Positions 25,201 through 37,200 of a stretch of DNA of 64,000 bases are shown here, piece by piece. Within the stretch, counting starts at the first letter, position 1, and every line of letters starts with the position of its first letter. The position numbers are program-made. Where the stretch lies: assembly GCF_054482525.1 (NCBI RefSeq), contig NZ_CM137006.1; one strand, written 5' to 3'.

Positions 25201-28200
25201 TGGAAAATTATCAGGATTCACCTTCAAATTCACTTGAATGTTACGCTTAATTTCACCCAGCAGTTCTTCATGTGTGGATTTTATTATCCCTTTCTCATAA
25301 TCGATAAATACACACATGTTCTTTATGAATTCAAAACCTTTTCCTGTATACAGTTTAATGAATGCCACCAGAGCAAACATTTCAAGATATAGCCATAATG
25401 CCACGTTAGTTTTTTGCAAAGTATAAAAAATTGAATTCGCCACTCTTTTACTTATTGCTCTTCTATACTGTGATCGGGCAAGATTCAGTAGCGGAAGCTC
25501 TCGTTCAATAAATGAATGTGAAAAGACTGGATAAATTGATGTCGGAAACCTTTCAGGTCTTATGATATTTTCTATTTCCACCATAAATCTATCCATAGAA
25601 AGAAAGTCACTTTCTTTTTTTATTCTGGTATAGAGACCGCCTTTATTCCTTTCTGAGGTTTGTTTTCGTGCTATCCCCCCCAACACTTTCTCTAATTGTT
25701 TATTTATCTTCGTATAATTAAATACAACCATTCTTCTTATCATCCTCGGAAGGATAATAATATCAGTGCTTGAATCACTTGAGCGGCAATTATTATTTAT
25801 CCATGCAACTTCAAGTTGCAGTATCGGAACATTAACTTTTCTGGGGTGAATATCTCTCTGATATCGTTTTTTGTATGCGTTTTCATTAAGATATTCTCTG
25901 CTGTAGAGAAACTTATAGCAATATAATCTGATAATATCTTTTATGTAAAATTTAAATAGTTCACCTGTAACAGATATATGTTTTCTGCTCAGTAACTCCT
26001 GTGTATTAAGCCATTCCCGTGACCGAAGCACACCCTTGTGAGAACTTTTTCTTACTTGCTTTGAAGCACGCCATTGATGTAATATTTTTGTGTCCTCAAT
26101 AATTCTCTTTCCCGTTTTATTTTTTGCAGCATCTCTTACTCTATAAAATATCTCCCAGTCCAGACTTTTGTCATATCTACTAATTATACGACAAATATTC
26201 CTGACCCGACGATTCTCTTTATTTCGCTTCCATAGCTTATAATGATCATCGCATAACCTTAAGGCATTTGCCTCATCAAATTCTGAAACAGGATTACTGC
26301 ATTTTTTATTCCGACAGATACCTTTGTTTTTAGCCATACTCTTCTTCCCGTCAATGGAAAATTTTTCACACCCATATTACCTGAATGATAAACCGGATTA
26401 GTGTGATCCGGTTCAGCGAAATCAACAGGATAACGGTATGTCATTCAGCCATTTTTCCCTCTCCGCACAAGTGAAATCATATCTGACGTTTCTTCCTGAA
26501 GAAATTCGCCAGAAAATCCTTGAACATCTCCACGGTGTTATTCATTACGAGCCCGTGATTGGCATTATGGGTAAATCCGGCACCGGCAAAAGCAGCCTGT
26601 GTAATGCCATTTTTCAGTCCCGTATCTGCGCCACGCATCCCCTGAACGGCTGCACCCGCCAGGCTCATCGTCTTACCCTGCAGCTCGGTGAACGCAGAAT
26701 GACGCTGGTCGATCTGCCCGGCATTGGTGAAACACCGCAGCATGATCAGGAATACCAGGCGCTTTATCGTCAGTTACTGCCGGAACTGGATCTGATTATC
26801 TGGATCCTGCGGAGTGATGAACGTGCGTATGCTGCCGATATTGCCATGCATCAGTTTTTACTGAATGAGGGCGCAGATCCCTCGCGCTTTTTGTTTGTTC
26901 TCAGCCATGCCGATCGCATGTTTCCTGCTGAAGAATGGAATGCCACAGAAAAATGCCCGTCCCGTCACCAGGAACTCTCACTGGCGACAGTAACAGCCCG
27001 GGTGGCCACCCTGTTCCCTTCATCATTTCCGGTACTCCCTGTAGCCGCGCCTGCAGGCTGGAACCTTCCAGCGCTGGTGTCACTGATGATCCACGCGCTG
27101 CCACCACAGGCAACCAGCGCAGTTTATTCACATATCCGGGGGGAAAACCGCTCTGAACAGGCCCGGAAACACGCACAACAGACTTTTGGTGATGCCATCG
27201 GGAAAAGTTTTGACGACGCCGTTGCCCGGTTCAGTTTTCCGGCCTGGATGTTACAGCTTCTGCGTAAAGCCCGGGACCGCATTATCCACCTGCTGATCAC
27301 ACTGTGGGAGCGTCTGTTCTGACACACTCACGCCGACAGGATGTGTCGCTGGATTAACGAGCATTCTTCTTTTTATGAAATCCTGCTTAAAAATCAGATA
27401 ATTAAAAGAATATTTTTTCTGCTGCATTTTATTCCTGATTATCCGGATGCGACACATCCTTTCAACATCATGATGCATAATAACATCATGAAATAAAAGA
27501 TGTTTTCTTACGGAGTGCACATCTATGTCTGATAATCGTTCCCGGCATGATCGCCTGGCGGTTCGCTTATCACTCATTATCAGCCGACTGATGGCCGGAG
27601 AATCTCTGTCACTAAAAACACTGTCAGATGAATTTGGCGTTACAGAACGTACTTTACAGCGCGATTTTCATCAGCGTCTGGTTCACCTGGATTTAGAGTA
27701 CAGAAATGGCAGGTACAGCCTCAGACGACAGAGCAGCCCGGGTGCGATCCCTGAAATGCTTTCTTTTATACAGAATACCGGTATCGCACGGATACTTCCG
27801 CTCCGGAACGGACGACTGATAACCTGTCTTACCGACAACCAGGAGCCCTCTCCCTGCCTTATCTGGCTACCGGCGCCGGATATCACTGCAACGTTCCCCG
27901 AGTATTTCTCGCAACTCATCCTGGCAATAAGACAGTGTAACCACATCTCTCTGATGACTGAGCGATGGTATCCGTCACTGGAGCCCTGCCGGCTCATTTA
28001 TTACAGCGGTAGCTGGTATCTGATCGCGTTACAGAAGGGAAAACTGCAGGTCTTTCCTCTGGCAGATATCAAATCAGTCAGCCTGACATCAGAACGGTTT
28101 GAACGGAGAGGCCACATCCACAGTCTGGTCGCTGAAGAGCGTTTTATCTCCGCCCTGCCACATTTCTCTTTCATCCATAAACTTATCAACACCTTTAACC

Positions 28201-34200: not shown

Positions 34201-37200
34201 GACAACCGGGGGAATATCACCATTAATCTGGATGACCACATACGGTCCGTTCAGGGTAAAGAACGCTATGAAGATGAGATGTTCATCATTAAATACTTTA
34301 AGAAGGGATCTGCACACATCACTTTCAAAAGGCTGGAGCTGATTGACAGAATTAACGATATAATAGCCAGGCACTTTCCTTCTGTGCTCTCAGCCTGACC
34401 CCGAGTTTGATTCCCTTTCGATATCAAAAGGGACTGCGGGTACAAAAGAGGGTACATCTTTCACCAAACCAAACAAAATAAACTAATATCAACATGATAG
34501 AAGCAATCTTCGATTCCGAGTCCGGCACCAAATTCATATAAACGGACCTCCACGGAGGTCCGTTTTTCGTTTCAGGACGCCACAATTTAAGCGTTCTGCC
34601 TAAAAATCATTTCTACCGAACTCAACCAAATTCTCCCCACATCACCAGCATTTTGCGGGTATATCCCAATTCGGGGAAATGTGTTCCTGAGCTATCGCAC
34701 TGACTGACGTGAAATGTCGTGCGGCCCCGTGATGCTGTTGAACGTCAAATGACGTCATCAGGAGCGTAACGCATCCATAAAGCACAACATCGGTCTGAAC
34801 GCCGACTGATAAGATTTTCTGAATGAGAACAAAGAGAAATGTATCGGTCCACTTGCTCATGCAAAGACTAACAATCCATTAAAATAGTAAGCGCTCCGGG
34901 CAATTTTCCATGGATTATTTTCTGCACATTTTTCTTTGGCAAAGATGATGAATTTTGATGGTAAGGAATATTACTTCTGGTTCTCAGTAAAATCCTTTCG
35001 TAATACTATGTAATCAAGAAGTTTATGGCTGGTAAAAATAACGTCTTGCATTCACCAACAATATGTAAATAAAACCATCTATAGATGGTAAAAATAGGTT
35101 GTGGCAATTATCATTGCATCATTCCCTTTTCGAATGAGTTTCTATTATGCAACAACCTGTAGTTCGCGTTGGCGAATGGCTTGTTACTCCGTCCATAAAC
35201 CAAATTAGCCGCAATGGGCGTCAACTTACCCTTGAGCCGAGATTAATCGATCTTCTGGTTTTCTTTGCTCAACACAGTGGCGAAGTACTTAGCAGGGATG
35301 AACTTATCGATAATGTCTGGAAGAGAAGTATTGTCACCAATCACGTTGTGACGCAGAGTATCTCAGAACTACGTAAGTCATTAAAAGATAATGATGAAGA
35401 TAGTCCTGTCTATATCGCTACTGTACCAAAGCGCGGCTATAAATTAATGGTGCCGGTTATCTGGTACAGCGAAGAAGAGGGAGAGGAAATAATGCTATCT
35501 TCGCCTCCCCCTATACCAGAGGCGGTTCCTGACACAGATTCTCCCTCCCACAGTCTTAACATTCAAAACACCGCAACACCACCTGAACAATCCCCTGTTA
35601 AAAGCAAACGATTCACTACCTTTTGGGTATGGTTTTTTTTCCTGTTGTCGTTAGGTATCTGTGTAGCACTGGTAGCGTTTTCAAGTCTTGATACACGTCT
35701 TCCGATGAGCAAATCGCGTATTTTGCTCAATCCACGCGATATTGACATTAATATGGTAAATAAAAGTTGTAACAGCTGGAGTTCCCCGTATCAGCTCTCT
35801 TACGCGATAGGCGTGGGTGATTTGGTGGCGACATCACTTAACACCTTCTCCACCTTTATGGTGCATGACAAAATCAACTACAACATTGATGAACCGAGCA
35901 GTTCCGGTAAAACATTATCTATTGCGTTTGTTAATCAGCGCCAATACCGTGCTCAACAATGCTTTATGTCGGTAAAATTGGTAGACAATGCAGATGGTTC
36001 AACCATGCTGGATAAACGTTATGTCATTACTAACGGTAATCAGCTGGCGATTCAAAATGATTTACTGGAGAGTTTATCAAAAGCGTTAAACCAACCGTGG
36101 CCACAACGAATGCAGGAGATGCTCCAGCAAATTTTGCCTCATCGTGGTGCGTTATTAACTAATTTTTATCAGGCACATGATTATTTACTGCATGGCGATG
36201 ATAAATCATTGAACCGTGCCAGTGAATTATTAGGTGAGATTGTTCAATCATCCCCAGAATTTACCTACGCGAGAGCAGAAAAAGCATTAGTTGATATCGT
36301 GCGCCATTCTCAACATCCTTTAGATGAAAAACAATTAGCAGCACTGAATACAGAAATAGATAACATTGTTACACTGCCGGAATTGAATAACCTGTCCATT
36401 ATATATCAAATAAAAGCGGTCAGTGCTCTGGTAAAAGGTAAAACAGATGAGTCTTACCAGGCGATAAATACTGGCATTGATCTTGAAATGTCCTGGCTAA
36501 ATTATGTGTTGCTTGGCAAGGTTTATGAAATGAAGGGGATGAACCGGGAAGCAGCTGATGCATATCTCACCGCCTTTAATTTACGCCCAGGGGCAAACAC
36601 CCTTTACTGGATTGAAAATGGTATATTCCAGACTTCTGTTCCTTATGTTGTACCTTATCTCGACAAATTTCTCGCTTCAGAATAAGTAACTCCCGGGTTG
36701 ATTTATGCTCGGCAATATTTGTTGTTGAGTTTTTGTATGTTTCTGTTGGTATAATATGTTGCGGCAATTTATTTGCCGCATAATTTTTATTACATAAATT
36801 TAACCAGAAAATGTCCCGCAATCCATTGTAAACATTGAATGTTTATCTTTTCATGATATCAACTTGCGATCCTGATGTGTTAATAAAAAACCTCAAGTTC
36901 TCACTTACAGAAACTTTTGTGTTATTTCACCTAATCTTTAGGATTAATCCTTTTTTCGTGAGTATTCTTAGCGCCAGTTTGGTCTGGTCAGGAAATAGTT
37001 ATACATCATGACCCGGACTCCAAATTCAAAAATGAAATTAGGAGAAGAGCATGAGTTCTGCCAAGAAGATCGGGCTATTTGCCTGTACCGGTGTTGTTGC
37101 CGGTAATATGATGGGGAGCGGTATTGCATTATTACCTGCGAACCTAGCAAGTATCGGTGGTATTGCTATCTGGGGTTGGATTATCTCTATTATTGGTGCA

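Follow-up and report, generated by a model that had tools for sequence, protein, structure and literature searches.

A fourteen-gene accessory module at the attR-proximal end of a probable pheU pathogenicity island of Escherichia coli

We analysed a window of 64,000 nucleotides (nt) from contig NZ_CM137006.1 (RefSeq assembly GCF_054482525.1), in which positions 26438-34398 carry an unbroken series of 14 genes on the + strand, each with an intact open reading frame (ORF) and none with an internal stop (Table 1). This interval is very probably the distal block of conserved accessory genes of an Escherichia coli pathogenicity island integrated at pheU, with hly and fec genes upstream and cadCBA downstream. 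The gene starts are RefSeq-style and were taken from copies that are 99.6% identical, in which RefSeq annotates 14 coding sequences (CDS) across the interval. The original prediction, made from the sequence alone, had described thirteen same-strand genes; the common strand stands, while the count becomes fourteen under this annotation. Its coordinates for the WYL regulator, the ArdB gene, the antitoxin and the toxin were all exact, and each family that it had named (GTPase, WYL, ArdB/KlcA, RadC/JAB, CbeA and CbtA) was recovered in the protein family searches. The Pfam expectation values (E) of the block, from 4e-5 for WYL to 5.9e-62 for CbtA, are far beyond chance. NCBIfam gave a specific family for none of the module proteins and returned sub-threshold generic GTPase matches only.

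Membership in a pheU island is seen at the right junction, where a direct-repeat remnant of the 3' end of the tRNA-Phe gene pheU forms the attachment site attR, 110 nt past the stop codon of the last island gene. The remnant is 22 nt long and corresponds to the last 23 nt of pheU minus one G (GGG to GG). When positions 34440-34640 are aligned with the pheU region of K-12, backbone homology begins exactly at TTCGATTCCGAGTCC(G)GGCACCA and runs on through the pheU terminator. A pattern search with the 23-nt pheU 3' end, allowing up to three mismatches, failed to detect it, since the remnant is one nucleotide short and such a search admits substitutions only; the site was spotted by reading the sequence and was then confirmed by the K-12 alignment. 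The boundary is marked independently by a comparison with the island of the uropathogenic E. coli ESBLEC_HM24 (HM24), in which the mismatch density jumps at about 34500. No tRNA gene was found in the whole window with ARAGORN, which places the attL side beyond its ends. Beyond the module come cadC, identified by Pfam, and then cadBA. Upstream the window holds hlyCA, a two-component system, the fec operon and insertion sequence (IS) elements, and the same is seen in HM24.

The block has its closest relatives in pheU and pheV islands of uropathogenic E. coli (for example HM24, EcPF5 and Es_ST80, with pathogenicity island II of CFT073 in the same group), which share 99.6% nucleotide identity with it over 7961 bases. 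These islands have the same 14 CDS in the same order and in the same place, by cadC in the case of pheU or by kps in the case of pheV, and the RefSeq annotation of the copies at the two sites is identical. Across 21874-34499 the window and the HM24 island are without a single mismatch except in one patch at 30500-31250, covering ArdB and the 5' end of RadC, in which all 28 mismatches are clustered. This patch looks like gene conversion from a paralogous copy in the genome. The two islands also differ upstream of the module, where about 9 kb, bounded by IS1, are deleted from the window.

According to megablast, DNA similar to the block is present in 5039 of the 5426 complete E. coli genomes (93%), at a median of 3 and a maximum of 17 places per genome, and 1656 genomes have a single place covering at least 80% of the query. 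That the interval is a distal module conserved among tRNA-associated islands of E. coli, as described earlier, is borne out by this frequency and by the pheU-derived attR. The block is already known, routinely annotated and ordinary in E. coli. Its discovery value is small, as thousands of genomes already carry its annotation, and ArdB, CbtA/CbeA and LfgB have already been studied experimentally. Its use is as a landmark for the attR-proximal end of the pheU island, with the right boundary at 34509.

The module had been called CP4-57-like, and this label holds for gene content but not for the distal half. In K-12, CP4-57 (yfjP-yfjQ-yfjR ... lfgA/yfjX-lfgB/yfjY-ypjJ-yfjZ-ypjF) and CP4-6 (ykfA-yafZ ... 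yafX-ykfG-ykfH-yafW-ykfI) share with the window the families of the GTPase, DUF932, helix-turn-helix (HTH) regulator, DUF905, ArdB, RadC, DUF987, antitoxin and toxin, and also the position of the toxin-antitoxin (TA) pair at the att-proximal end of the element. The proximal half of the module thus has the gene content of these two elements at lower identity (DUF932 76%, GTPase 34%, regulator 43%, ArdB 66-74%), and the toxin is likewise distant (57-67%). DUF932 directly follows the GTPase gene in both K-12 elements, whereas in the window it follows DUF905, and neither element has a match to DUF5983, DUF957 or DUF4942. For the distal half, CP4-44 (yeeP ... yeeS-yeeT-cbeA-cbtA-yeeW) is the nearer relative. 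The RadC, DUF987, CbeA and CbtA proteins are 98.7, 100, 85 and 85% identical to those of CP4-44, compared with 78, 62, 69 and 67% for CP4-57, and the toxin stop of CP4-44 overlaps the start of yeeW, as it does with DUF5983 here. CP4-44 differs in having flu/yeeR in the place of the WYL-DUF905-DUF932-ArdB genes, in lacking DUF4942, in that yeeP is a pseudogene and in that yeeW is truncated (64 residues, against 163 here).

Outside the chromosome, the block occurs in the same order and at about 69% nucleotide identity on IncHI1B/FIB-type conjugative plasmids of Klebsiella, Raoultella and E. coli. The order on these plasmids is WYL ... DUF905-DUF932-hypothetical-ArdB-(hypothetical)-RadC-DUF987-YeeU-CbtA-DUF5983-DUF957, preceded, as in the islands, by AlpA and inovirus-Gp2-family genes. 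The GTPase, the 225-residue hypothetical protein, DUF905, DUF932, the 81-residue hypothetical protein, DUF987, DUF5983 and DUF957 all have counterparts either in this syntenic block of the Klebsiella plasmid or in the leading region of IncF plasmids. In a codon-wise comparison with the Klebsiella plasmid copy, the ratio of nonsynonymous to synonymous substitution rates (dN/dS) was between 0.09 and 0.24 in 11 of 11 shared genes, a set that leaves out the GTPase and the 225-residue protein, the ratios being approximate since dS is saturated. All eleven, including two without a Pfam family, behave as real coding genes under constraint. This bears on the possibility that the module is what is left of a cryptic prophage in decay, without function and not kept by selection. 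Such elements are traditionally named cryptic prophages, and the paralogous copies in K-12 do hold pseudogenes (yeeP, ypjI, ykfK/L and the truncated yeeW). However, with all 14 ORFs intact here and the order shared with the Klebsiella copy, the purifying selection largely refutes this explanation, which we consider highly improbable. A phage origin of the module was rejected, as only one of 50,697 phage records has a match, a 3.2-kb fragment.

Among the best characterized members of the module is the ArdB/KlcA-family protein of 157 residues (Pfam Antirestrict, PF03230, E 1.1e-36). Both its sequence and its likeness to a solved fold place it in this family. It matches PDB 2WJ9 with E 7.8e-108 and is identical to it at 150 of 157 positions (~95.5%, seven differences), and it also matches the KlcA structure 2KMG (E 1.6e-20). 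The 2WJ9 protein is the ArdB of pathogenicity island II (PAI II) of CFT073, which inhibits type IA-ID restriction in vivo but does not inhibit EcoKI in vitro; inhibition of type I restriction in vivo has also been reported for YfjX and YafX (PMC2836571), and ArdB is described as acting by an indirect route that does not involve DNA mimicry. By analogy with the CFT073 protein, the present allele probably has anti-restriction activity. The anti-defence role that had been put forward for the module is therefore directly supported only for ArdB, through this 95.5%-identical protein. The TA pair may contribute to maintenance of the island.

Downstream from ArdB is a RadC-like JAB/JAMM protein of 158 residues, of the YeeS/YkfG/YfjY (LfgB) type (Pfam RadC, PF04002, E 1.5e-44; PDB 2QLC, E 3.2e-25; 98.7% identity to K-12 YeeS), in whose translation the metal-binding motif HxHPx6Sx2D is intact: HNHPSGEVTPSKAD. 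The JAB paralogue LfgB (YfjY) is reported to be a protease acting on MqsA (PMC10846083). The DUF987 protein that follows has 73 residues (Pfam E 1.9e-39) and is 100% identical to K-12 YeeT.

Upstream of ArdB are a DUF905 protein of the YkfF/YpjI type (77 residues, Pfam E 1.3e-31) and a DUF932 protein of the YfjQ/YafZ type (272 residues, Pfam E 3.2e-51, 76% identity to YfjQ/YafZ). The stop of the DUF932 gene overlaps the start of a gene for a cysteine-rich protein of 81 residues, for which no family was found in Pfam, NCBIfam or PADLOC and which is kept in the Klebsiella plasmid copy with dN/dS 0.21. At least 5000 plasmid records, 4332 of them conjugative, contain a match to the DUF932 gene, with 64-71% nucleotide identity. 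On an IncFIA plasmid, homologues of DUF905 and DUF932 (the latter at ~68% nucleotide identity) are co-oriented in the leading region, flanked by ssb/psiB/hok on one side and by the tra genes from traM onward on the other, and the DUF905 gene adjoins ssb. Leading regions are enriched in anti-restriction (ArdB/KlcA) and TA genes co-oriented on one strand (PMC11541004), and all 14 genes of the module are likewise co-oriented and abut the end of the island. This suggests an alternative in which the module is an establishment cassette like a plasmid leading region, entering the recipient first in conjugative mobilisation and being expressed early against restriction and other defences. We regard this as conceivable but unlikely. 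The IncF leading region has ssb, psiB and oriT, none of which is in the window, and the region compared is without RadC, CbeA/CbtA, DUF5983 and DUF4942. No oriT or relaxase was identified by the module, and in the literature consulted we found no natural transfer that starts at the module end of this type of island. Positions 26000-35200 contain one weak inverted repeat inside the module and no long hairpins or repeats resembling single-stranded DNA promoters. Rfam, at gathering thresholds, found no RNA family in the whole window, and the 162-nt spacer that leads into cbeA folds no better than shuffled sequences (z = -1.4). The analogy is therefore one of gene content, because the Rfam, repeat and folding searches were empty.

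The TA pair is of the type IV CbtA/CbeA (YeeV/YeeU) kind and is made up of a CbeA/YeeU-family antitoxin of 122 residues (Pfam CbeA_antitoxin, PF06154, E 5.5e-54; PDB 2INW, E 3e-72, and 2H28, which is YeeU, E 1.9e-71) and a CbtA-family toxin of 124 residues (Pfam CbtA_toxin, PF06755, E 5.9e-62, over positions 1-112 of the 112 in the profile). Each is 85% identical to its K-12 counterpart, and the antitoxin gene lies directly upstream of the toxin gene on the same strand with a spacer of 89 nt, compared with 88 nt in K-12. A PDB sequence search with the toxin found nothing. CbtA binds FtsZ and MreB by separate interactions, stopping both division and elongation, and F65 is the determinant of the FtsZ interaction (PMC5624674); in the translation of the present toxin F65 is conserved. 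Residue 15 is Cys, as in YkfI and YpjF, where CbtA has Arg. The idea that Cys15 makes this a natural variant defective in MreB binding was rejected, since YkfI and YpjF share Cys15 and the change C15R had no effect there (PMC5624674). Toxins of the CbtA family are neutralised by the CbeA-family proteins CbeA, YafW and YfjZ, with YafW and YfjZ acting against YkfI and YpjF (PMC5371832). Growth arrest by the toxin and its neutralisation by the antitoxin without degradation or sequestration of the toxin, described for the K-12 homologues (PMC5371832, PMC5624674), may by analogy extend to the present pair.

The toxin gene is followed by a gene that had been noted as translationally coupled and of no assigned function. 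It encodes a DUF5983 protein of the full-length YeeW type, 163 residues long (Pfam DUF5983_N, E 2.2e-28; DUF5983, E 1.4e-21), with dN/dS 0.15 in the Klebsiella comparison. The toxin stop and the DUF5983 start overlap as ATGA, with a GGAGG upstream (ggaggcgaaATGAtg), and the gene is therefore, as had been claimed, translationally coupled to the toxin. In a population study, CbtA was consistently followed by DUF5983 downstream across sequence types (PMC10790755). Next comes a gene for a 65-residue protein that RefSeq names DUF957. No match to it was found in the current Pfam copy, and its dN/dS of 0.13 is consistent with a real gene at this place. Upstream, the DUF957 frame is open as far as 33184, giving a reading frame of 33184-33471 whose first 71 nt lie, in the +1 frame, within the end of the DUF5983 gene. 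According to a 2026 preprint, a small ORF that adjoins DUF5983 and is listed in AntiFam is real, and a programmed frameshift or a fused product is proposed for it; the preprint discusses the AntiFam entry ANF00264 (bioRxiv 10.64898/2026.06.09.728211). The coupling by ATGA and GGAGG, the order shared between E. coli and Klebsiella, the dN/dS values of 0.13-0.15 and the linkage of CbtA with DUF5983 across sequence types (PMC10790755) together led us to speculate that cbeA-cbtA-DUF5983-DUF957 may be a conserved multi-component unit, in which DUF5983 and DUF957 would work together with CbtA, such as by serving as an additional antitoxin, as a chaperone or as a regulator. We put this forward tentatively and think it rather doubtful.

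The first gene of the module encodes a GTPase of the YeeP/YfjP/YkfA type with 294 residues (Pfam MMR_HSR1, E 5.7e-15; Dynamin_N, E 6.4e-10), which RefSeq names 'GTPase family protein' and which is ~34% identical to K-12 YfjP/YkfA. The second encodes a YfjR-like regulator of 226 residues with an N-terminal HTH followed by a WYL domain, 43% identical to K-12 YfjR. Its Pfam WYL match is marginal at 24.0 bits (E 4e-5, profile positions 33-68 only) against a cut-off of 21.8 bits, and its HTH_11 match, at 23.1 bits, is under the Pfam cut-off of 25 bits. The WYL assignment is reinforced by two PADLOC WYL models, with E 2.6e-18 over residues 10-88 and E 7.6e-7 over residues 123-194, and the annotation of its counterpart on the Klebsiella plasmid also names a WYL domain. 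These PADLOC matches, together with a weak match of the GTPase C-terminus (residues 185-284) to LeoBC of the dynamin-like Eleos system (E 1.4e-7) and the upstream dGTPase-family gene of the related HM24 island, could also indicate an anti-phage defence module, in which the GTPase, the WYL regulator and CbtA/CbeA would act in abortive infection or host defence and not in the service of the island. We consider this quite improbable. PADLOC found no complete system in the module, and Eleos consists of LeoA with LeoBC, whereas no LeoA-like partner is present among the module proteins. The similarity to LeoBC extends over no more than about 100 residues, the other eight scanned proteins had no match, and ArdB is an anti-defence protein and not a defence protein.

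Two further proteins complete the module. The third gene encodes a hypothetical protein of 225 residues for which Pfam, NCBIfam and PADLOC gave no family; it begins with a segment resembling a signal peptide (MNTRALFPLLFTVASFSASA) and, judged from this segment, is putatively secreted. The last gene of the island encodes a DUF4942 protein of 280 residues (Pfam E 4.6e-66), with 2451 homologues across Enterobacterales. Its legacy name, 'restriction methylase', suggests an S-adenosylmethionine-dependent DNA methyltransferase. The analysis did not support this, as neither a Rossmann-like fold nor a sequence match was found: an AlphaFold2 model (predicted local distance difference test score, pLDDT, 76) had no significant fold match, and the PDB sequence search found nothing.

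If the interval is the distal accessory module of a pheU island, its genes may serve the island itself. ArdB would help the island to become established in a new host, and so, by association, would DUF932 and DUF905, which have relatives in the leading regions of conjugative plasmids. The TA pair may help it to persist, DUF5983 would be translated together with the toxin, and the WYL regulator may control expression of the module. Several points weigh against this account. We found no published experiment in which the present TA pair stabilises an island, and the RadC, DUF932, DUF905, DUF987 and DUF4942 genes are not known to act against defence systems. The WYL match is barely over its Pfam cut-off, and a PDB sequence search gave no solved WYL structure. 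The name 'CP4-57-like' fits only loosely. Finally, a scan for sigma-70 promoters found 8 sites, compared with 10.0 +/- 2.7 in shuffled sequence.

The terminator-like hairpins after DUF905 and DUF957, both consensus matches, suggest about three to four transcription units. The GTPase gene may form a unit alone, followed by one with the HTH-WYL regulator, the putatively secreted 225-residue protein and DUF905. The largest proposed unit would run from DUF932 through the 81-residue protein, ArdB, RadC/JAB, DUF987, CbeA, CbtA and DUF5983 to DUF957, and DUF4942 would again stand alone. This layout is drawn from the hairpins, because the promoter scan was no better than shuffles.

Table 1. Features of the module and of the right island junction (positions in the window)
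Feature	Position	Strand	Basis
GTPase	26438-27322	+	Pfam
HTH/WYL regulator	27525-28205	+	Pfam, PADLOC
Hypothetical protein, 225 residues, signal-peptide-like N-terminus	28353-29030	+	ORF
DUF905	29036-29269	+	Pfam
Terminator-like hairpin after DUF905	29290-29319	+	13-pair stem, T-rich tail; consensus match only
DUF932	29359-30177	+	Pfam
Hypothetical protein, 81 residues, Cys-rich	30177-30422	+	RefSeq CDS
ArdB	30516-30989	+	Pfam, PDB
RadC/JAB	31005-31481	+	Pfam, PDB
DUF987	31550-31771	+	Pfam
CbeA (GTG start)	31934-32302	+	Pfam, PDB
CbtA	32392-32766	+	Pfam
DUF5983	32763-33254	+	Pfam
65-residue protein, RefSeq 'DUF957'	33274-33471	+	RefSeq CDS
Terminator-like hairpin after DUF957	33499-33525	+	10-pair stem (7 GC), T-rich tail; consensus match only
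DUF4942	33556-34398	+	Pfam
attR, 22-nt remnant of tRNA-Phe (pheU) 3' end	34509-34530	+	K-12 pheU alignment
Native pheU terminator hairpin, chromosomal backbone	34540-34565	+	identical to K-12

Some further observations concern the neighbourhood of the module. Divergent from the GTPase gene, a 407-residue ORF on the - strand (25114-26337) lies in a stretch of 33% GC. It adjoins the module in pheU and pheV islands alike, RefSeq calls it 'hypothetical protein', and it has no family match in Pfam, NCBIfam or PADLOC. Further upstream, an IS1-like segment at 21106-21874, 90.7% identical to the IS1F of HM24, stands in place of the roughly 9 kb of HM24 that are missing from the window. The missing part comprises the 3' end of the dGTPase-family gene, H-NS-like, ProQ/FinO-like and YagK/YfjJ genes and several genes for hypothetical proteins, and the arrangement looks like an IS-mediated deletion within the island. 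On the other side, a 34-nt direct repeat in two copies, 71% identical and 56 nt apart, lies in the chromosomal backbone just upstream of the cadC start (35024-35113). The cadCBA backbone (34500-40888) differs in places by about 1-3% from the best-matching genomes, whereas the island next to it shows essentially no difference from theirs. This suggests separate histories for the island and for the chromosome beside it.

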